A stretch of DNA of 17,975 nt from Patescibacteria group bacterium (lineage in GTDB: Bacteria; Patescibacteriota; Patescibacteriia; Magasanikbacterales; GWA2-37-8), in assembly GCA_004321885.1 (NCBI GenBank), contig SCQK01000003.1:1-17975 (forward strand), read 5' to 3'. Within the stretch, counting starts at the first letter, position 1; each line of letters starts with the position of its first letter. Positions 2,521 through 17,975 of the stretch are shown here, piece by piece. A program made the position numbers and the translations under genes. The notes below the pieces were generated by a model. It searched no databases. It worked only from the letters and a program-made list of their open reading frames with translations, and was not told where the DNA came from.

Positions 2521-2553
2521 GACAAAACAAAAATCGCCTCTGATGAGACGATT
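2521..2553 (-). terminator. intrinsic terminator for the 4593-2575 operon; a conserved module shared with 9478-9512
   Basis: Minus strand shows AATCGTCTC-ATCA-GAGGCGATT followed by TTTGTTTTGTC. The same AAACAAAAATCGCCTC..GACGA module recurs at 9478-9512, also preceded by GGGGAGGAAAACC. Confidence 0.55.
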
Positions 2554-2574
2554 CTCTGGTATCTAAATTGTAAA

Positions 2575-3606
2575 TTATTCACGGTATAATTTTCGGACAT
2601 CCACCAGTTCAGGATGCTGGCTTAATATGGTTATCGCGTCACTCATGGTTTTTCCCGAATGAAGCGCGATAATAATTCCTTCGGCGTCAGTCAGAGCCAC
2701 CAGCGATGATTTACCGCTCAATACATTCTCCGTCTCCAAGCCAAACAATTTAATCATCGCTGAATTATTTTTATCATTGGCCAGAAACCAGCCGCCCAAC
2801 TTTTCTATATGCTCGAATAAAAAATCATGCGCCGAATCCGGCTCGGGGTAGCGACAGCCGACCTCTAAAATACAAGCATATTTATTTTCATACGGCTCAT
2901 CAATGCCGACATCATCGTATTTTCTTTTTTGGAGAGCAAAGATATAAAACTTTTTATTTTTAGGAATTTTAGTAACGGAAAATTTGTCCAACTCATTTGA
3001 TTTAATAGAATCACCAGGCTTCAAAGGCGCTGTTCCCCCCACTTTAAGAATTCCGAATTTATTTATCCCATTAAGAAAATTAAAATTTGCCAAATTTGGA
3101 TAGAACCTCAAAATAAATAATACGTCCTTCAATCCCCTGTTTGGAAACATACCGGCAATTCTGCCTTCGTGATTTCCAACAATAACAAGTGATTTAATAT
3201 GCTTATTTTCGGGAAGATCAAGACCAAAAAATTCTTCGTCCGTTGCTTGATATGTATCCTCCACTTGCAGCCAGCCACCCATAGTTTGTATCAAAGCGCC
3301 GTCAACGCCGCAATCTTCGTTTATGCACCAGGTGCCCGGTTCTGCCACGCTCACATAAAATTTTTGCCCAGCGGGTATCTTTAGGTGGGGAGCAAAAGTG
3401 GTATCGCCAGGCCCGCCCGGCATTTTGCTTCCAATTGTTAACGAGTCAATCTTTGACGGATTTTCCCACGAGCGATTAATTTTTCGCACGCTGCCTTCCG
3501 GTAATTGGGTGTATGGTTGAATAACAGAGAAAATTACAATAAAAGCAAGGAAAATAATAACTAGGCCGAGAACAACCCATTTAGATTTACTAAAGCCACC
3601 CATCAT
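2575..3606 (-). CDS. hypothetical N-terminally membrane-anchored extracytoplasmic protein, 343 aa
   Basis: An N-terminal hydrophobic segment (WVVLGLVIIFLAFIVIFSVI) follows a short basic stretch. The start lies 3 nt after the upstream gene's stop, so the two are probably translationally coupled. No confident family was identified. An isolated GNHE tetrapeptide is not enough to call a metallophosphatase. Confidence 0.55.
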   Translation of the reverse strand: MMGGFSKSKWVVLGLVIIFLAFIVIFSVIQPYTQLPEGSVRKINRSWENPSKIDSLTIGSKMPGGPGDTTFAPHLKIPAGQKFYVSVAEPGTWCINEDCGVDGALIQTMGGWLQVEDTYQATDEEFFGLDLPENKHIKSLVIVGNHEGRIAGMFPNRGLKDVLFILRFYPNLANFNFLNGINKFGILKVGGTAPLKPGDSIKSNELDKFSVTKIPKNKKFYIFALQKRKYDDVGIDEPYENKYACILEVGCRYPEPDSAHDFLFEHIEKLGGWFLANDKNNSAMIKLFGLETENVLSGKSSLVALTDAEGIIIALHSGKTMSDAITILSQHPELVDVRKLYRE

Positions 3607-3609
3607 ATT

Positions 3610-4593
3610 TCAAAGAACAACTTCTAAAAAACCAATGCTTTCACCGTCGCCTTTTCTGGATTTCATCAATATCTGACACAACTCATCCCAGCGCTCAATT
3701 TCTGTTAAAGTAACGCAACCGAGCGAAAAGCTGCCGGGATGAACATAACGATCGTCGCTTTTATGGGTGGTCTTGAACCAGACCATTGCGAGGTCGGCTC
3801 TATCAAGATAATATCGGCCTCCATCATGAGAATGGTCAGGAATTTTAATGTCATAAAGTTTTCTTTGCCAAGGGTCTGGGTCATCTTTGTAGTCCTGCGT
3901 TTCGTAAGTTTTATTTCCAAACTTTAATAAATTTTTGGATCTGTAATAAATTAGATGAACCGGGCCGGTTTGGTGATTTGTCGATTCCAAATATGAAACA
4001 CCGCCCGATTCTAACTTTACGGAAGCTTTCTCATCACGCCAGGGGTCTTCTAAAATTGTAAAATACTGACGCTTTAAATCTTGCTTGTCTAATTTAACTT
4101 TGAGATATGCAGGCAAGGCAATCTCCATATTTTTATTTTCTAATTTCACGATAGTCCATCCGCCTTTTCCTTTTTCAAAAGAGACATATAAAAAGGCGTC
4201 GGACACTACGGCTTCCAGTGTTATTTCAAAAACAGCGGCTTTTGTTCCCCAGGACTTACCCGATGTTGAATGGGTTTCTTTAATCGGGACCTTGAAAGTA
4301 AGCTGTTTAAATTTTTTTGAGGTATTAATTTCTACATCGCTTTGGACACTGCCGACGTCGTTAAATAAAATGTCTTTTTCAATAACGGTAATTACGGCCT
4401 CGGCTTTAAATATCTGTTGATCAGTTTCAAATTTTCCCACTTCGCTGTCAATTTTAGCCGTTGCGCCGGCTTTGATTTTTTTATCCACGCGTAAAAACTT
4501 TCCCAGTATTTCAATTTCCACGCGAATATCATCACCAATGGAATCGCCGCTGTATTTTATTTTTGAAAGTTTTAATTGAACGGATTTAAGCAT
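3610..4593 (-). CDS. hypothetical protein, 327 aa; the C-terminus weakly resembles the L,D-transpeptidase (YkuD-like) His/Cys catalytic motif
   Basis: ATG-initiated ORF with no signal peptide. The C-terminal segment TTHKSDDRYVHPGSFSLGCVTL has His-x16-Cys spacing like hGT...SxGC(I/V)R in L,D-transpeptidase folds. This rests on motif resemblance alone. Confidence 0.5.
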   Translation of the reverse strand: MLKSVQLKLSKIKYSGDSIGDDIRVEIEILGKFLRVDKKIKAGATAKIDSEVGKFETDQQIFKAEAVITVIEKDILFNDVGSVQSDVEINTSKKFKQLTFKVPIKETHSTSGKSWGTKAAVFEITLEAVVSDAFLYVSFEKGKGGWTIVKLENKNMEIALPAYLKVKLDKQDLKRQYFTILEDPWRDEKASVKLESGGVSYLESTNHQTGPVHLIYYRSKNLLKFGNKTYETQDYKDDPDPWQRKLYDIKIPDHSHDGGRYYLDRADLAMVWFKTTHKSDDRYVHPGSFSLGCVTLTEIERWDELCQILMKSRKGDGESIGFLEVVL

Positions 4594-4605: not shown

Positions 4606-4857
4606 TTAGCTTAATCGTTTTCTGTCTTCCGACTTTTTTAAATAATTTTTCTTGGAAACAATGCTTTTTCCAAGACGTTTTTCCAATTGTTTTCTCGCGC
4701 CACCGGCGATGTCGCTTCCGGCTTTGGCATCGTTTTTAAGCTTGGGCAGTCCTTGCGAATTTTCATTGCGGTGAATTTCCGTGGTAGCGCGCTCACCGAG
4801 CATGGTAAAAATTAACTCAAAATCATCCATGTGGTCGCGCAGATTTTCCCGCTGCAA
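4606..4857 (-). pseudogene. C-terminal remnant of a DinD/RhuM-like protein (DNA-damage-inducible protein D family), N-terminal Bro-N part missing
   Basis: The translation has DHMDDFELIFTMLGERATTEIHRNENSQG...SDIAGGARKQLEKRLGKSIVSKKNYL. The motif G(G)xxAR+xLExxxGKxVVSxxNYL is characteristic of the DinD C-terminus. The 'start' is a TTG at 4855-4857 directly abutting the 78-bp palindrome. Only about 80 of the roughly 270 aa are present. Confidence 0.5.
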
Positions 4858-4866
4858 ACCTTTTAC

Positions 4867-4944
4867 GGGTCTGTCGCCGAATTACTATTTCTGTCATTCC
4901 TGCGCAAGCAGGAATGACAGAAATAGTAATTCGGCGACAGACCC
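4867..4944. repeat. 78-bp perfect palindrome, family A with GGGTCTGTCGCCGAAT terminal inverted repeats
   Basis: GGGTCTGTCGCCGAATTACTATTTCTGTCATTCCTGCG|CAAGCAGGAATGACAGAAATAGTAATTCGGCGACAGACCC. The two halves are exact reverse complements. It lies between the DHS stop (4970) and the DinD remnant. Confidence 0.9.
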
Positions 4945-4969
4945 CAGTATCAATCCACAGCCCAAAAAA

Positions 4970-5992
4970 CTACCCTAAAAAAGAGGCGAAATTGCGCGGT
5001 CCGCGGTTCTTCCAATTGCCTTTGTGATAAACGTAGCTGACGATAAGCGGGAGGACGGTCGTGGCCTCGGCAAACACCATCTGATCGTTATTGCTTTTGG
5101 CGTCAACCTTGCCCCAAGAGCTGGCTTCTTTAAGGGTGGAGCTGGAGCAGGCGCCGTCACGCGCGTCGGCCACGGTAATTTGCACCGCGTATTTATGCAT
5201 GGGCACTTCCTGACCCAGCACCTCGGCGCAAACCACTGTGTCCTGGGTGAAATTTTTGGGCACGCCGCCGCCGACCATAAACACGCCGGTATCTCCGGCT
5301 TTTATTTTTATTTTCGTCAATTCGTAAAAGTCCTTTACCGAATCAATGGACATGTGCTTGTCCGGATTGTTCACCTGATGAAGCACCAAACCAAAACCGG
5401 CGCTGGAATCGGAAAAAGCCGGACAGAAAATCGGCACGTCGTGCTCGTAAGCCGCTTGCACCAACGAATCCTTTTTCTTGCCGTGTGTGACTAAATACTT
5501 ACCCATCTCGCGGATGAATTCGCGCGAAGAATACGGACGCGATTCCAGTCCGTCGGCGATGGCGAGAATTGTTTTGTCGCAAACCTGCAATGATTCTTCA
5601 TCAATAAAAGTGTCGTAAATTCTGTCTATGTACAACCCGCGCAAAATGCTGTCGTCTATTTCCTGCGAACCGCGGTAATGCTTAAATCCAAGGGCCTCAA
5701 AAAAGTCCATGTCCACGATGCTGGCGCCGGTGGCCACGATGGCGTCCACCATTTTGTTTTTCACCATGTCAACATAAATCTGCATGCACCCGGCCGCGCT
5801 GGTGGAGCCGGCCAGAGTGAGGATAACGCTGGCGCCTTTGTCGGCCAGCATCTTGTCGTAAATCTCGGCGGCCCGCGCCGTGTCGCGCGCGCTAAACGAC
5901 ATCTGCGCCATCTGTTCTATCACCGGCCGCGCGTCAAAACTCTTGATGTTAAAATGTTTTATCTCCTCCTTTAACAAATCTTGTTTTTGCAT
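4970..5992 (-). CDS. deoxyhypusine synthase family protein (DHS / homospermidine-synthase-like)
   Basis: Colinear matches to DHS motifs: VPIFCPAFSDSSAGFG (cf. IPVFSPALTDGSLGDM), MVGGGVPKNF (cf. ILGGGVVKHH), DARDGACSSS..SWGKV (cf. DGSDSGARPDEAVSWGKI), VFAEATTVLPLIVSYVY. Confidence 0.85.
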   Translation of the reverse strand: MQKQDLLKEEIKHFNIKSFDARPVIEQMAQMSFSARDTARAAEIYDKMLADKGASVILTLAGSTSAAGCMQIYVDMVKNKMVDAIVATGASIVDMDFFEALGFKHYRGSQEIDDSILRGLYIDRIYDTFIDEESLQVCDKTILAIADGLESRPYSSREFIREMGKYLVTHGKKKDSLVQAAYEHDVPIFCPAFSDSSAGFGLVLHQVNNPDKHMSIDSVKDFYELTKIKIKAGDTGVFMVGGGVPKNFTQDTVVCAEVLGQEVPMHKYAVQITVADARDGACSSSTLKEASSWGKVDAKSNNDQMVFAEATTVLPLIVSYVYHKGNWKNRGPRNFASFLG

Positions 5993-6126
5993 AAAAAATA
6001 AGTTATATTGGCTATGCCATATATGCTCATTCGCTCGGAAACAAACGAGCTTGCGCTCACTTGTTTCTCTCGCTCATTTCGTATATAATTGCCATAATTG
6101 TAGCAACATAAGCTTTTTTTTGCAAT
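5993..6126. promoter_or_regulatory. divergent promoter region between DHS and the aguB-aguA-apt-mtnP operon
   Basis: TATAAT at 6085-6090 lies about 36 nt before the amidase ATG. Direct repeats GCTCATTCGCTC (6025) and CGCTCATTTCG (6071). An imperfect IR GAAACAAACGAGC/GCTCACTTGTTTC is centred near 6052. A T8 tract sits at 6113-6120. Confidence 0.4.
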
Positions 6127-6990
6127 ATGTCCCACATAAAGAAAATCGTTACGCTCGGCCTCATCCAAATGCAATGCGACGACGACCCGAAAAAAAACTT
6201 AGCCACAGCCATAAAAAAAATACAAGCATGCGCCAAAAAAGGCGCGCAAATTATTGTTTTGCCCGAGCTATTTTTGTCCAAATATTTTTGCCAAGAGAAA
6301 AATGAAAAAAATTTCGCCTTAGCCGAAACCATCCCAGGCGCGGCCACCGAAATTTTAGGCCAACTGGCTAAAGAAAACAGACTCGTAATTATTTGCTCGC
6401 TTTTTGAAAAAAAGGCGAACAAATATTTTAATACCATTGCCGTCATTGGCACCGACGGCCGCGTACTGGGCGCTTACCGCAAAATGCACATCCCATCGCT
6501 TCCGCCCGACCTCTACGCCGAAGATTATTATTTTGAAAAAGGAGATAAATTCAAGGTATTTGACACGGCTTACGGCAAAATCGGCACACTCATCTGCTAC
6601 GACCAATGGTTCCCGGAGGCCGCCCGCTACTGTGCGGCTTTGGGTGCGCAAATTTTAGTTTATCCCACGGCTATCGGCTGGCCGCTTCATGACCCGCAAT
6701 GGAAAAAAAACGCGGAACACGAGGCCTGGCAAATTACCCAGCGCAGTCACGGCATAGACAGCAATGTGTTTGTGGCGGCGGTCAATCGTGTTGGCTTGGA
6801 AAAAAATATGAAATTTTGGGGCGCGTCCTTTGCCAGCGATTGTTACGGCCGCGTCATCGCCAAAGCCTCCAGTAATAAAGAAGAAAATATAATTGTTAAA
6901 TGCGATTTAGGACTAATTGAACTTATGCGCGAGGAATGGCCCATGCTAAGCGAGCGCAGAATAAAAGTAGAGAACCAAAAAATATTATGA
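6127..6990 (+). CDS. aguB: N-carbamoylputrescine amidase (carbon-nitrogen hydrolase family)
   Basis: Nitrilase-superfamily catalytic triad in context: LPELF (Glu), RKMHIP (Lys), LICYDQWFPE (Cys). It is 287 aa, sits immediately upstream of agmatine deiminase, and overlaps it by ATGA. Confidence 0.8.
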   Translation: MSHIKKIVTLGLIQMQCDDDPKKNLATAIKKIQACAKKGAQIIVLPELFLSKYFCQEKNEKNFALAETIPGAATEILGQLAKENRLVIICSLFEKKANKYFNTIAVIGTDGRVLGAYRKMHIPSLPPDLYAEDYYFEKGDKFKVFDTAYGKIGTLICYDQWFPEAARYCAALGAQILVYPTAIGWPLHDPQWKKNAEHEAWQITQRSHGIDSNVFVAAVNRVGLEKNMKFWGASFASDCYGRVIAKASSNKEENIIVKCDLGLIELMREEWPMLSERRIKVENQKIL

Positions 6991-7988
6991 AATACCGCCT
7001 GCCCGCAGAATGGGAGCCGCATGAAGCCACCTGGCTGGCCTGGCCGCACTACGAAAAACACTGGCCCGGCAAATTTGAGCCGATTCCATTCGTGTATGAA
7101 AAAATCGCGCATGCCTTGGCGCAAAACGAAAAGGTAAATATTTTAGTAAATGATGAAGCCATGGAAAATGGCGCTAAAAAAATTCTGGGGAACAACTTAA
7201 ATAATATCTATTTTTACCGCGTGCCAACCAACTCTTCCTGGACCAGAGATTACGGCCCCATTTATGTAAAGGATGAAAACGGAAATTTACTGGCCGAGGA
7301 TTGGATTTTTAACGCCTGGGGTGGGCAATGGGAATATAATTTAGACGATGTGGTGCCGCAAAAAATCGCCGGCCTGCAAAAAATCCCTCTCATTTCCACG
7401 AAATTGGTTTTGGAGGGAGGGTCAATAGACGTAAACGGCAAGGGTTCGCTTCTCACTACTCGCCAATGCCTGCTCAATAAAAACCGCAACGGCAATCTCA
7501 CGCAAAAACAAATTGAAAAGAGCTTGGCTGAATTTCTTGGAACCGCCAATATTTTATGGCTGAACGAGGCAGTAACCGGCGACGACACGAGCGGCCACAT
7601 TGATGAACTGGCCAGATTTACAGACGCGAATACTATTGTCTGCTCGCTGGAGGAAAATCCAGCTGATGTGAACTACGGGGGGCTGAAAAAAAATTACGAG
7701 GATTTGCTCGCCATGCGCGATGAGAAAGAAAAAAAATTCAATGTTGTTCCCCTGCCCATGCCTGATCCGGTGATTTACCAAGGGCAGAGATTGCCGGCCA
7801 GCTATTGTAATTTCTACATCGCCAATTCCGTCGTGCTGGTGCCTGTTTTTAACTGCCCCAAGGATAAAATCGCGCTTGAAACTTTACAAAAACTCTTTCC
7901 CGACCGCCGCGTCATGGGCATTGACTGCGTTGACCTGGTCTGGGGCCTGGGCACGATTCATTGTTCAACTCAACAACAGCCTAAATAA
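6987..7988 (+). CDS. aguA: agmatine deiminase (porphyranase-type peptidyl-arginine deiminase fold)
   Basis: MKYRLPAEWEPHEATWLAWPH N-terminus and C-terminal catalytic GTIHCSTQQQP. The start is moved to the ATG at 6987, overlapping the amidase TGA stop (ATGA). The listed ORF start at 6936 adds a 17-aa extension inside the upstream gene. Confidence 0.85.
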   Translation: MKYRLPAEWEPHEATWLAWPHYEKHWPGKFEPIPFVYEKIAHALAQNEKVNILVNDEAMENGAKKILGNNLNNIYFYRVPTNSSWTRDYGPIYVKDENGNLLAEDWIFNAWGGQWEYNLDDVVPQKIAGLQKIPLISTKLVLEGGSIDVNGKGSLLTTRQCLLNKNRNGNLTQKQIEKSLAEFLGTANILWLNEAVTGDDTSGHIDELARFTDANTIVCSLEENPADVNYGGLKKNYEDLLAMRDEKEKKFNVVPLPMPDPVIYQGQRLPASYCNFYIANSVVLVPVFNCPKDKIALETLQKLFPDRRVMGIDCVDLVWGLGTIHCSTQQQPK

Positions 7989-7993
7989 ATTAT

Positions 7994-14231: not shown

Positions 14232-15350
14232 ATGATAAAAAAAATCCTGTTTATCAGTTGTTCGGCCGGTTCGGGCCATATTAAAGCCGCCGAGGCCCTA
14301 CATCTGGCCTGTGCTAAAAAATACCCGCAAATCCAATCGTGGCACTTCAATATTTCCGACGACTGGAATTTTCTTCTGCGCCATTCAGTCACCACTCCTT
14401 ATGAATTCGCCTTAAAGCATTACCCGGCGCTTTTCGGCGCGGCCTACAAACTCACCGACAGCGCCCCCCTCACCAAGGCGGGCCAGCTCTTTAATTTTTT
14501 GCTCCGTTTCGGCGTGCAAAAACATTTGGATAAAATAAGCGAGTTCGGCCCGGAGGCCGTGGTCTATACCCACTTCATCCCGGCGCTGATGCTGTCTAAA
14601 TTTTTGGACGCGCCGCAATACATGCTCGTTACTGATTATTACGCGCACAAAATTTGGCGCGTGCCAAACATGAAAGCGTTTTTCGTGCCGACCGAAGAAA
14701 CCAAAAAAAGCATGGGCAAATTCGCGCCCGCTTGCGCGATTACCGGTTTACCAGTAAGCCCGGAATTCAAAAAAGTAAAACCCATCGCGGAGCTAAAAAC
14801 AAAACTGGGCCTGACAAACGACCAGCCGGTTGTTTTATTTATGCCGACGGTTCCCGGAAAAGTGGATATTGGGAAAGTGGTGCTGTCATTGCGAACGGAA
14901 CGAAGCGGAGTGAAGCAGTCCCCCGCGATTGCGGATGGGATTGCTTCGCCCTATCGGGCTCGCAATGACAAACAGCTAAACATTATTATTATCCTCGGAA
15001 AAAACCAAGGGGATATCGCGCCTTCTGAAAATTTACGGGTCATTAAGCCGGTCCCAAACATAGACGAATACATGCGCATTGCCGACGTCATCGTCACCAA
15101 AGCCGGGGGTATGAGCATTACCGAAATCGCCTATTTGCGCAAGCCAATGCTCATCATCAACCCTATTCCGGGCCAGGAAGAATACAACGCGAAAATTTTC
15201 TGCAAGCTTGGCTACTGCCTCGTTGCCCGCGACAACGACGAACTGGAAGCAAAAATAAAAGCCGCTCTAAGCGGCCAACTTTTCTTCAAGGCGCCGCCGC
15301 TACAGGATGCGGCGGAAAAAATTTTGAACACGATTTTTGGGCAGGGGTAA
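14232..15350 (+). CDS. GT28-family glycosyltransferase of the MGDG-synthase/UgtP (diacylglycerol glycosyltransferase) type
   Basis: N-terminal ILFISCSAGSGHIKAAEAL (cf. UgtP LILTANYGNGHVQVAKTL), central MLVTDYYAHKIWRVPNMKAFFVPTEE, and C-terminal VTKAGGMSITEIAYLRKPMLIINPIPGQEEYNA (cf. [33 protein letters not shown]). Confidence 0.75.
   Translation: MIKKILFISCSAGSGHIKAAEALHLACAKKYPQIQSWHFNISDDWNFLLRHSVTTPYEFALKHYPALFGAAYKLTDSAPLTKAGQLFNFLLRFGVQKHLDKISEFGPEAVVYTHFIPALMLSKFLDAPQYMLVTDYYAHKIWRVPNMKAFFVPTEETKKSMGKFAPACAITGLPVSPEFKKVKPIAELKTKLGLTNDQPVVLFMPTVPGKVDIGKVVLSLRTERSGVKQSPAIADGIASPYRARNDKQLNIIIILGKNQGDIAPSENLRVIKPVPNIDEYMRIADVIVTKAGGMSITEIAYLRKPMLIINPIPGQEEYNAKIFCKLGYCLVARDNDELEAKIKAALSGQLFFKAPPLQDAAEKILNTIFGQG
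14884..14970. repeat. 87-bp element bounded by 11-bp inverted repeats TGTCATTGCGA/TCGCAATGACA, inserted in-frame within the glycosyltransferase CDS
   Basis: Its ends share TGTCATT/AATGACA with family A. It is 87 bp (29 codons), encoding LSLRTERSGVKQSPAIADGIASPYRARND in the inter-domain loop. That loop is about 21 aa longer than the same loop in UgtP. Confidence 0.5.
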
Positions 15351-15354
15351 ATTC

Positions 15355-15822
15355 CTATTGCCTTCTCTCGTCCAGCCCCTGACTCTCGGGCTGGTAATTG
15401 GGCTGGATATAGACGCCTGACTGATTGATGTCTTCGTAGCGGTTTAGCGCCAGCTTGATGGCAAATGTGGTGATGGACCAGGCGGCCAAAATAATAATGA
15501 GCCCGATGACAGAATTAAACATCCATTTTTTCGCTTTAGTCACCTGCTCGTCGTTGCCCCCGGCCGTCATCCACAAAACTCCGGCATAGATGATAATGAC
15601 AACCATGAGCAGTCCCACCAGGCTCAACATAATGCGAATCATTCCGGCCGCGGTGATGCGCGGGTCCACTGGTTCGCCATAGCCCGCGCCTTTTTGGCCG
15701 CCGGCGGCCTGAAACTGGTTGCTGATATCCGCGCCCACGCTTTTATTTACGTCCGCGCTAAAAACAGGCGCCGCGAAAGCGAAGAGGGAAACGAGGAATA
15801 GTAAAATAATTATTTTACGCAT
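15355..15822 (-). CDS. VirB2/TrbC-like pilin family protein (paralog 1 of the tandem array)
   Basis: Signal peptide MRKIIILLFLVSLFAFAAPVFSA, then core LSLVGLLMVVIIIYAGVLWMTAGGNDEQVTKAKKWMFNSVIGLIIILAAWSI. Polar C-terminal tail with no Cys. Start is moved to the ATG at 15822, which overlaps the upstream stop as TGAtATG. Confidence 0.75.
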   Translation of the reverse strand: MRKIIILLFLVSLFAFAAPVFSADVNKSVGADISNQFQAAGGQKGAGYGEPVDPRITAAGMIRIMLSLVGLLMVVIIIYAGVLWMTAGGNDEQVTKAKKWMFNSVIGLIIILAAWSITTFAIKLALNRYEDINQSGVYIQPNYQPESQGLDERRQ

Positions 15823-15823
15823 A

Positions 15824-16339
15824 TCACCACAAATTGCTCCAAAAATTCTTGGCCGAGCCGGTAAAGCCCTTGCCAAAACCCTGCCAAAATCCGCCGGTCT
15901 GGGCCCCGGCGCTTTGGCCCACCTGCCCGGCGCCGGGCTCGGTGACCCGAAACACGCCCATTAAAATAAAGGCGGTCAGGCTATAGGCCGCCACCACGAT
16001 AATCAGGCCGACAACCGAAGAGCGGATAATTTTTTGCGCCTTTTCTACGCGCTCGTCATTGCCCCCGGCTGTCATCCACAAAATGCCAGCGTAGACAGTC
16101 AGTATCAAAAAAACAGTGCCTGTGAGCGACAAAATCACCCGAATTATCCGGCCTACATTTTCGGACAAGGTGGTGTCTGTCACGTTTGTTTCAAAACCGC
16201 CGGTGCCGGCCACATTGGAAGCCATCCCGCCCGGGCCAATGCCGATATCGGGCGCGGCCAAGACCATCGTGACGGATAAAAAGAATAGAGAATAGAGAAT
16301 AGAGAATAGAGAGACGAAGAAAATAATATAATTTTTCAT
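15824..16339 (-). CDS. VirB2/TrbC-like pilin family protein (paralog 2) with a Gly/aromatic-rich C-terminal tail
   Basis: MKNYIIFFVSLFSILYSLFFLS signal peptide, encoded by 4x GAATAGA. Core LSLTGTVFLILTVYAGILWMTAGGNDERVEKAQKIIRSSVVGLIIVVAAYSL. Start is at the ATG at 16339; the listed ORF start at 16447 is an upstream extension. Confidence 0.75.
   Translation of the reverse strand: MKNYIIFFVSLFSILYSLFFLSVTMVLAAPDIGIGPGGMASNVAGTGGFETNVTDTTLSENVGRIIRVILSLTGTVFLILTVYAGILWMTAGGNDERVEKAQKIIRSSVVGLIIVVAAYSLTAFILMGVFRVTEPGAGQVGQSAGAQTGGFWQGFGKGFTGSAKNFWSNLW
16283..16310. repeat. 4 perfect tandem copies of the heptanucleotide GAATAGA within the signal-peptide coding region
   Basis: 16283-16289, 16290-16296, 16297-16303 and 16304-16310 are identical. 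On the coding strand, (TCTATTC)4 encodes SILYSLFSI. Confidence 0.9.
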
Positions 16340-16343
16340 AATG

Positions 16344-16907
16344 CTATAAGGGTGAGCAATCCTGCGCGCAACTACTAACCGGCTGTCCCTGACAAGTGGA
16401 GGGACTTTGGCCGACATAACAAGTTCTACTTTCGAAAACGCCTCCATTAATTTTTACAACACAACAACCAGCATCATTTTGTGAACCGCTTGTCTGCTGA
16501 TTTTGTTGCTGTGACGCTGCGCCGCCGGATGAATTACTCCCGCCCATCTTCGTGGTCACAAAATACGTAATCGCGTAAGCCGACAAAGTGATAAACAAAC
16601 CGATAATGCAGGCCTTGATTATCTTATGCGCTTTTTCCACTTTTTCCTGCTCGCCCTGGGCCGTCATCCAAAGAATGCCGGCATAAACCATTAAAATCAA
16701 AAATAAAGTGCCCACCAGCGACAAAGCGGTTTTAACCACCGTGCCCACCGTGGTGGAAAGCTCTTTTTCCAGGCCAACGTCTCCGACCGCGTTGTCCAAA
16801 GTTTTCATGGCATTGCCCAATCCCTTTTGCGCCAGAGCATCGCCGGACAAAAAGAATAGCGAATAGAGAATAGGGAATAGAGAAACGAGGAAAATAATTT
16901 TTTTCAT
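16344..16907 (-). CDS. VirB2/TrbC-like pilin family protein (paralog 3) with a Cys-rich C-terminal domain
   Basis: MKKIIFLVSLFPILYSLFFLS signal, core LSLVGTLFLILMVYAGILWMTAQGEQEKVEKAHKIIKACIIGLFITLSAYAI. A Ser/Gln-rich linker leads to a tail with 6 Cys (CCVVKINGGVFESRTCYVGQSPSTCQGQPVSSCAQDC). Confidence 0.75.
   Translation of the reverse strand: MKKIIFLVSLFPILYSLFFLSGDALAQKGLGNAMKTLDNAVGDVGLEKELSTTVGTVVKTALSLVGTLFLILMVYAGILWMTAQGEQEKVEKAHKIIKACIIGLFITLSAYAITYFVTTKMGGSNSSGGAASQQQNQQTSGSQNDAGCCVVKINGGVFESRTCYVGQSPSTCQGQPVSSCAQDCSPL
16854..16881. repeat. degenerate heptanucleotide tract (GAATAGC GAATAGA GAATAGG GAATAGA) in the signal-peptide coding region
   Basis: Same position and register as 16283-16310 in the adjacent paralog. 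The two flanking ~60-bp gene 5' ends are about 85% identical. Confidence 0.8.
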
Positions 16908-16926
16908 ACATATACCCCTCTCATTG

Positions 16927-16948
16927 CCCCTCCCTTAAAAGGGGGGGG
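16927..16948. repeat. family B hairpin CCCCTCCC-TTAAAA-GGGGGGGG upstream of pilin paralog 3; contains a G8 tract
   Basis: G8 tract at 16941-16948. Lies 20-40 nt upstream of the ATG at 16907. Confidence 0.55.
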
Positions 16949-16970
16949 ATAAAGGGTGAGGTTTTAAAAA

Positions 16971-17564
16971 TCATTCATGACAACACACATTATCAACGCC
17001 GCCCGGACATAAACCCGACTCTTTAACTTTTGGCGGTAAACAGCTGGCGGCAGGGCCGCAAGAGCCAGTGGAAGAATACTCGCATTTCGTAATACAATTG
17101 CCACTTCTACAAACACTATTGTCACCGCATTTTGTATTATCGTTCTGTCCTTGGCAAGACGCCACTTGCCCTCCCGCGCCGCTCCCCCCGCCACCCCCCA
17201 CCAGATTGGTAAACACAAAGCGCGTAATGGCGTAGGCGGCCAAAACTATCACCAAGCCGATTATCGCCGTTTCCATTATCTCCTTACCCTTCTCCGCTTT
17301 TTCCGGCTTACCCAAGGCTGTCATCCACAACACGCCGGCGTACAGAATAAGCCCGAAAAAAATAATGCCGATGAGCCCCAGGCCCACGCCGATAATGTCG
17401 CCGATAAGTACCGGCACTGTTTTTTGGCTGATGGGCAGTTTGGAAAGCTCGGCGTTGTCGGCCGCGGTCTTTAAGCCGTATTTATCCTGCGCCAAAACAG
17501 CGGCGGCGGATAGAAGGCCGGTGATCAGCACAAAAATAAGGATTATTTTTTTTGTCAGTGACAT
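16971..17564 (-). CDS. VirB2/TrbC-like pilin family protein (paralog 4) with a Cys-rich C-terminal domain
   Basis: MSLTKKIILIFVLITGLLSAAAVLAQ signal, core IIGVGLGLIGIIFFGLILYAGVLWMTALGKPEKAEKGKEIMETAIIGLVIVLAAYAI. A Gly-rich linker leads to a tail with 10 Cys (…CQGQNDNTKCGDNSVCRSGNCITKCEYSSTGSCGPAASCLPPKVKESGLCPGGVDNVCCHE). Start is at the ATG at 17564; the listed ORF to 17696 runs through leader repeats. Confidence 0.75.
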   Translation of the reverse strand: MSLTKKIILIFVLITGLLSAAAVLAQDKYGLKTAADNAELSKLPISQKTVPVLIGDIIGVGLGLIGIIFFGLILYAGVLWMTALGKPEKAEKGKEIMETAIIGLVIVLAAYAITRFVFTNLVGGGGGSGAGGQVASCQGQNDNTKCGDNSVCRSGNCITKCEYSSTGSCGPAASCLPPKVKESGLCPGGVDNVCCHE

Positions 17565-17576
17565 AGTTATACGTTG

Positions 17577-17661
17577 GCTCCATAGTCCCCGCAGGGGCTG
17601 TGGAGCCAGCTTGCAACTTGCAACACGGCTCCACAGTCCGCCTTTGGCGGAACTATGGAGC
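17577..17661. repeat. family D hairpins (GGCTCCAYAG ... CTRTGGAGCC) plus direct repeat CTTGCAA x2 in the pilin leader
   Basis: 17577-17608 GGCTCCATAG-TCCCCGCAGGGG-CTGTGGAGCC and 17626-17661 GGCTCCACAGT-CCGCCTTTGGCGG-AACTATGGAGCC. Confidence 0.75.
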
Positions 17662-17678
17662 CACCCGTGAAAGTATTT

Positions 17679-17777
17679 CCCTACAGAGGGTTGCACGCGC
17701 GACCCCGACTGTGGATTCCTGCTTTCGCAGGAATGACAGTTGAAACAGGAACGCGCGCGCGAACCCTCTGTAGAGGG
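17679..17777. repeat. nested palindromic element: outer IR CCCTACAGAGGGTT..CGCGCG / CGCGCGCG..AACCCTCTGTAGAGGG around a family-A core (17713-17738)
   Basis: The core GGATTCCTGCTTTCGCAGGAATGACA is identical to 2454-2479. The outer arms are about 22 bp. Confidence 0.75.
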
Positions 17778-17790
17778 TTCCCATATTAAA

Positions 17791-17975
17791 CTAAGGCGTA
17801 ACAGGCGTGCCTCCGGCTCCGGTTGTCGCCGAAACCAAAGACTTCAGCACAAAGTTGGCCAAGGCGTAAGCCGCGAAAATAATAATCAGACCGATAATGC
17901 CCGAGAAAATCCATTTCTTGCCCTGGGTAACTTTCTCGTCATTGCCGCCGGCCGTCATCCAGGTAAAGCCGCCGA
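17791..17975 (-). CDS. VirB2/TrbC-like pilin family protein (paralog 5), N-terminus beyond the window
   Basis: The minus-strand frame gives GGFTWMTAGGNDEKVTQGKKWIFSGIIGLIIIFAAYALANFVLKSLVSATTGAGGTPVTP* with a TAG stop at 17791-17793. No start lies in the window, so it is absent from the ORF track. Confidence 0.7.
   Translation of the reverse strand, partial: GGFTWMTAGGNDEKVTQGKKWIFSGIIGLIIIFAAYALANFVLKSLVSATTGAGGTPVTP

Follow-up and report, generated by a model that had tools for sequence, protein, structure and literature searches.

What might two coupled genes of no recognisable family do in the genome of a patescibacterium? This question was raised by a pair of genes in a 17,975-nucleotide stretch of contig SCQK01000003.1 from a Patescibacteria group bacterium (assembly GCA_004321885.1); we refer to the whole stretch as the window. 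Gene A (positions 3610–4593, minus strand) is an ORF for a 327-aa protein that has no signal peptide, and gene B (2575–3606, minus strand) encodes a 343-aa protein with an N-terminal transmembrane (TM) anchor and two thioredoxin-fold domains, which we propose to be an immunity protein. As a preliminary description of the sequence had reported, both ORFs are present and tightly coupled, with B downstream of A across a 3-nt gap (junction TGA-aat-ATG). A terminator-like hairpin with a T-run (2529–2556, minus strand) follows some 20 nt past the stop codon of B and probably marks the end of the operon. The flanks were also as described, comprising a composite palindromic repeat element on one side (2375–2504, no strand) and, on the other, a degraded gene and a perfect palindrome with 37-nt arms formed by the same repeat element (4867–4944, no strand). 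The degraded gene is an 83-aa ORF directly upstream of A (4606–4857, minus strand), which matches PADLOC model PDC-S13 (PDLC04920) at E 5e-24 and is read as a C-terminal remnant because the match covers only model positions 196–273 of 286. Between the two palindromes, which form the segment boundaries, GC content is 40.2% versus 50.5% for positions 4945–17975, in keeping with the accessory neighbourhood that had been suggested. The window copy of the pair lies inside a low-GC, repeat-bounded segment adjoining defence-type genes, and T4SS pilin genes occur within the window 8 kb from the pair.

Scanning A and B as single sequences against Pfam, NCBIfam and PADLOC returned no match at E ≤ 1 for either protein, so that the earlier failure to recognise a family was borne out. 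Homolog searches retrieved 255 clusters for A and 86 for B, all from Patescibacteria where named, and we therefore consider both to be real genes rather than chance ORFs; a profile of the A family extended to 700 representative clusters at E ≤ 0.001. The AlphaFold2 (AF2) model of A (pLDDT 93, pTM 0.80) describes a three-part protein, in which an N-terminal beta-sandwich precedes a 190-aa module of Tlde1/YkuD fold. Residues 1–134 (4192–4593, minus strand) form the C2-like beta-sandwich, a domain found only in Patescibacteria and Saganbacteria, while the conserved module (residues 135–327; 3613–4191, minus strand) consists of a small beta domain and an L,D-peptidase-fold catalytic domain. Profile searches of PDB sequences with three alignments (A1, A3 and A4) gave nothing meaningful. 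In the model, the fold of the catalytic domain is the YkuD/L,D-peptidase fold, as the preliminary description had anticipated for the C-terminal part of A.

Evaluating the residues on which such an enzyme would depend, we found that the earlier proposal of a YkuD-type His/Cys core survived in part. The motif TTHKSDDRYVHPGSFSLGCVTL (residues 275–296; 3706–3771, minus strand) holds H277, H285 and C293, and the order of structural elements around it in the model is beta (bearing His), loop, beta (bearing Cys), helix, beta. The fold and the cysteine within SxGC held up, C293 staying unchanged across 45 close and 27 distant homologs, but the histidine originally singled out did not: H277 is kept only within the Patescibacteria clade, varies across the wider family, and is separated from C293 by 15 residues rather than 16. 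The residues invariant family-wide are H256, H285, G287, G292 and C293, so that the conserved His-Cys spacing is H285-x7-C293, and we propose H285 and C293 as the catalytic His/Cys of A.

Compared with the YkuD family proper (PF03734; Ldt_fm, LdtMt2, B. subtilis YkuD, Csd6, Pgp2), A shares the fold and an invariant nucleophile-type Cys that follows a Gly and sits on a strand leading into a helix. The PF03734 HMM nevertheless finds no match in the window A protein at E ≤ 10 and matches only 3 of the 45 close homologs (best E 0.04). The YkuD motif H-x14-17-[S/T]HGC-h-R is absent from A, whose core reads S-L-G-C with Thr295 where Arg is expected after the Cys; A lacks conservation of the His at the canonical 14–17-residue distance, the 'HG[ST]' signature and the second His (the His of 'SHGC' being Leu), and it carries neither an export signal nor a peptidoglycan-binding LysM or PG_binding domain.

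A closer parallel is offered by the Tlde1/Tae5 effectors of T6SS (PF10908, formerly DUF2778) and their Tldi1/Tai5 immunity proteins. The Pfam Tlde1_dom profile, with a gathering score of 30.1 bits, matches 14 of 27 diverse A relatives in the same region, all below that cut-off; the best match (P0332, E 1.3e-6) reaches 29.3 bits over profile positions 2–113 of 120. Among the close Patescibacteria members 10 of 45 gave weak matches, again below cut-off, and the window A protein gave none, which together point to a remote link of A with Tlde1/DUF2778. In that family the His-Cys spacing is shorter than in the canonical YkuD pattern (10.1101/2020.02.18.954545), and in Tlde1a it takes the form H121-x9-C131, both residues being needed for toxicity (10.1101/2020.02.18.954545; PMC9638812). 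A likewise has the L,D-peptidase fold, a short spacing between two conserved residues (H285-x7-C293) and an 'S-x-G-C' core; its module, like Tlde1, also occurs as C-terminal cargo of larger toxins, and the signal-less enzyme is encoded next to an exported protein, here a TM-anchored one for which we propose an immunity role. The differences are that A has H-x7-C and 'SLGC' in place of H-x9-C and 'SHGC', that the window protein reaches no Pfam threshold, that A bears an extra beta domain of ~75 aa as well as the 134-aa C2-like N-domain, and that it is paired with a TM-anchored tandem thioredoxin-fold protein instead of DUF2195. The host also differs, being a patescibacterium: no T6SS component appears among the scanned window ORFs, and the fusions seen in relatives involve eCIS_core, C70 and Amidase_3 rather than Rhs or PAAR.

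Where A acts was approached through its relatives. A hydrophobic N-terminal segment was found in none of 120 A homologs, so the initial description of A as cytoplasmic holds as a statement about the missing signal peptide and no further; its relatives bear Sec signals or toxin-delivery heads, which places the site of action probably outside the cytoplasm. As in polymorphic toxins, the A module turns up with a variety of delivery domains and other domains. It is the C-terminal domain behind eCIS_core/DUF4157 in three proteins (P0306, P0313, P0341), a head-plus-toxin architecture published for eCIS toxins (PMC8213781), and one of these eCIS_core-headed genes directly follows a gene for a WHD + AAA ATPase; an AAA protein belongs to the core components of eCIS operons (PMC8213781). 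In other relatives the module is fused to Peptidase_C70 or to Amidase_3, and in other phyla it stands alone or behind Sec signals. The window A protein differs from the eCIS toxins in having no eCIS_core and no eCIS genes nearby, its N-terminal domain being a different, lineage-restricted beta-sandwich. This N-domain alternatively heads SH3_3+SLT lytic-transglycosylase proteins, and a homolog search with its profile retrieved gene fragments only and no new architectures.

B is a TM-anchored, outward-facing protein built of tandem thioredoxin folds. Its single transmembrane helix, KSKWVVLGLVIIFLAFIVIFSVIQPYT (residues 7–33; 3508–3588, minus strand), appears as a helix in the model, and 80 of 86 homologs have such an N-terminal hydrophobic segment, which upholds the suggestion of one anchor with an extracytoplasmic bulk. 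Domain 1 (approximately residues 52–175; 3082–3453, minus strand) carries an invariant C94-x4-C99, and domain 2 (approximately residues 210–343; 2578–2979, minus strand) an invariant C245-x5-C251. Other lineages have partners of a single domain that are homologs of domain 1 (hhalign of the B alignment A2 against A5, probability 95%, E 3e-8; BLASTP to the 170-aa L001 partner, E 4e-14). The two motifs are W-C-x4-C, which lies at the strand-1/helix-1 junction, and C-x5-C; the Cys pairs are invariant in 43/43 Patescibacteria, which could suggest redox chemistry over mere binding and would then count against an immunity role. B has the fold of the thioredoxin superfamily and not its active-site motif or a family HMM match: it contains neither CxxC nor PxxxTxxC, the Pro and Thr at peroxiredoxin positions are not conserved, and no thioredoxin-fold family appeared among the 25 most frequent of the 33 families found for 49 members. 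Each B domain shares its fold with BCP/PrxQ peroxiredoxins and with TlpA/ResA/DsbE; TlpA and ResA are, like B, membrane-anchored and outward-facing, and the Cys pair of B at the strand-1/helix-1 junction has the C-x4-C spacing of BCP. B departs from all of these in its missing Pfam match and motifs, in being a tandem duplication, and in that the Cys pair is missing from homologous partners in other phyla.

We also surveyed what follows A elsewhere. At every one of the 67 Patescibacteria metagenome loci that could be scored, A is directly followed by a gene for an N-terminal-TM protein, which starts −29 to +12 nt from the A stop codon, and these partners fall into three mutually exclusive families: 46 thioredoxin-like (B-like), 18 of class II and 3 of class III. 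The gene pair, for which the preliminary description advised a co-occurrence check across CPR genomes, does recur across Patescibacteria, but A also occurs without B: roughly one third of the Patescibacteria A genes are followed by another kind of TM-anchored protein in its place. Class II partners match PdaC/DUF4163 only at E 0.09–0.19, a resemblance that we offer as a lead. In other phyla, where a 4-nt overlap of the partner gene with the A stop is frequent, the partner may be an exported thioredoxin-like protein that lacks the Cys pair (as in the B-homologous proteins of Flavobacteriales, Halanaerobacter and Margulisiibacteriota), a TPR-like helical protein or some other exported protein unrelated to these, adding at least four further families. 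An immediately adjacent partner drawn from variable, unrelated families is what polymorphic toxins display. One downstream protein, of 568 aa in locus L006, is MACPF-like and therefore possibly not an immunity protein, which counts against that role. Copy number and order vary as well: tandem A-B-A arrays occur in two loci (L073 and L076), in two more (L056 and L092) A is preceded by additional B-like ORFs, and one 621-kb contig holds two copies. A second family member (P0022, 54% identical) has the same EPN28 locus-tag prefix, which suggests that it stems from the same MAG. The pair frequently sits among housekeeping genes, and the A family is very widespread in Parcubacteria; a housekeeping role would also suit such a distribution.

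Taking these lines together, we favour, at a probability of roughly 55%, the reading that A is a cell-wall L,D-peptidase effector and B its immunity partner, a toxin-antidote pair in Patescibacteria. What we observe are the fold, the remote family link, the conserved residues, the shuffled domains, the topology and the interchangeable partners; we infer all four of the working parts, namely enzymatic activity, toxicity, A-B binding and the export route. A would be a cysteine L,D-peptidase that is directed at peptidoglycan and works, like Tlde1/Tae5, as an L,D-carboxypeptidase, a transpeptidase or both, with His285 and Cys293 as the putative catalytic pair and His256 possibly assisting. Made without a Sec signal, it would target the cell wall of a host or a competitor, beyond the cytoplasm of the producer, and its Patescibacteria-specific beta-sandwich may serve delivery or envelope binding. 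B, presumably co-transcribed from 3 nt downstream, membrane-anchored and facing outward, would bind A and render it harmless at the wall of the producing cell itself, and would thereby be the immunity protein. The constant TM anchoring of the Patescibacteria partners, their three exclusive families and the unrelated exported partners elsewhere fit an effector-immunity pair, and the combination of a signal-less A with an anchored B is how an immunity partner behaves. The eCIS_core heads, the C70 and Amidase_3 fusions, the Sec signals and the SLT enzymes that carry the N-domain make A look like toxin cargo; the A-B-A arrays, extra B-like ORFs, multiple copies and low-GC, repeat-bounded site are an arrangement typical of effector-immunity genes. 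Against the effector reading, T6SS or contractile injection genes are absent among the scanned window ORFs, and we know of no established route for a signal-less protein in Patescibacteria; the missing Pfam match of the window A protein, the scores of its relatives below the Tlde1_dom cut-off and the absent YkuD features also count against it.

We weighed three other explanations. An unlikely one is that A is a housekeeping enzyme that remodels the cell's own peptidoglycan, with B as a membrane-anchored thiol-disulfide oxidoreductase keeping its catalytic Cys reduced. Such a B would protect the single catalytic Cys of A much as E. coli DsbG reportedly guards that of L,D-transpeptidases (Depuydt et al. 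2009). The thioredoxin fold of B, its invariant 'WC-x4-C' at the strand-1/helix-1 junction, the reliance of A on one conserved Cys and the wide occurrence of the pair, often among core genes, would all suit this role. It accords poorly with the third of Patescibacteria A genes that have a non-thioredoxin partner in that position, never both kinds, and with thioredoxin-like partners that lack the Cys pair in Flavobacteriales, Halanaerobacter and Margulisiibacteriota; the B motif is not CxxC, A has no export signal, and toxin-head fusions are hard to square with housekeeping.

The absence of a signal peptide from all 120 A homologs would suit a reading of A as a cytoplasmic enzyme. It might, for example, be an L,D-carboxypeptidase that recycles imported muropeptides by trimming them, perhaps held at the membrane through its C2-like domain, with B a functionally separate membrane protein or a mere scaffold. 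Membrane binding is frequent among C2-like folds, and Patescibacteria take building blocks from their hosts (PMC11665869). We regard this as improbable, for it leaves unexplained an always tightly coupled, exported and family-interchangeable next gene, and relatives come with Sec signals, with eCIS toxin heads or with an amidase of muramidase type. It is very improbable, in our estimate, that B and the alternative TM-anchored partners translocate or activate A instead of inhibiting it. Every partner is strictly adjacent and membrane-located, and A has no known export route, as one would expect of a dedicated helper; yet a single translocation mechanism is unlikely across unrelated folds, a lone TM helix makes a poor channel, and the exported neighbour in proteobacterial Tlde1 systems is a proven immunity protein (10.1101/2020.02.18.954545).

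Returning to the effector-immunity reading, we tentatively extend it, in a form that we consider doubtful, to a polymorphic effector system of the Patescibacteria's own. In such a system the C2-like N-domain would mark signal-less wall-degrading cargo, whether a Tlde1-like L,D-peptidase or SLT, for export or host delivery, and interchangeable TM-anchored immunity proteins would guard the epibiont wall. A repurposed monoderm-type T4SS, the system to which the pilin genes 8 kb from the pair belong, is a conceivable export route for C2-like-headed cargo.

Much of bacterial diversity belongs to the Patescibacteria (CPR), which live on other cells, and to our knowledge almost no molecules acting on the host envelope have been defined for them. 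The abundant A module offers a testable candidate, a putative cysteine L,D-peptidase whose catalytic residues are predicted to be H285 and C293, together with a set of cognate partners proposed to neutralise it, and the N-domain common to A and a lytic transglycosylase may give a handle on the export route. With homologs of the A module occurring in ten or more further phyla as well as in toxins of eCIS type, the remote relationship would extend the Tlde1/DUF2778 effector superfamily beyond the alpha-, beta- and gamma-proteobacterial T6SS described so far, and a thioredoxin-fold family emerges as a recurrent partner of the module. If the proposed Patescibacteria effector system is true, it would be the first defined effector class by which these ultrasmall epibionts breach the envelope of their hosts.

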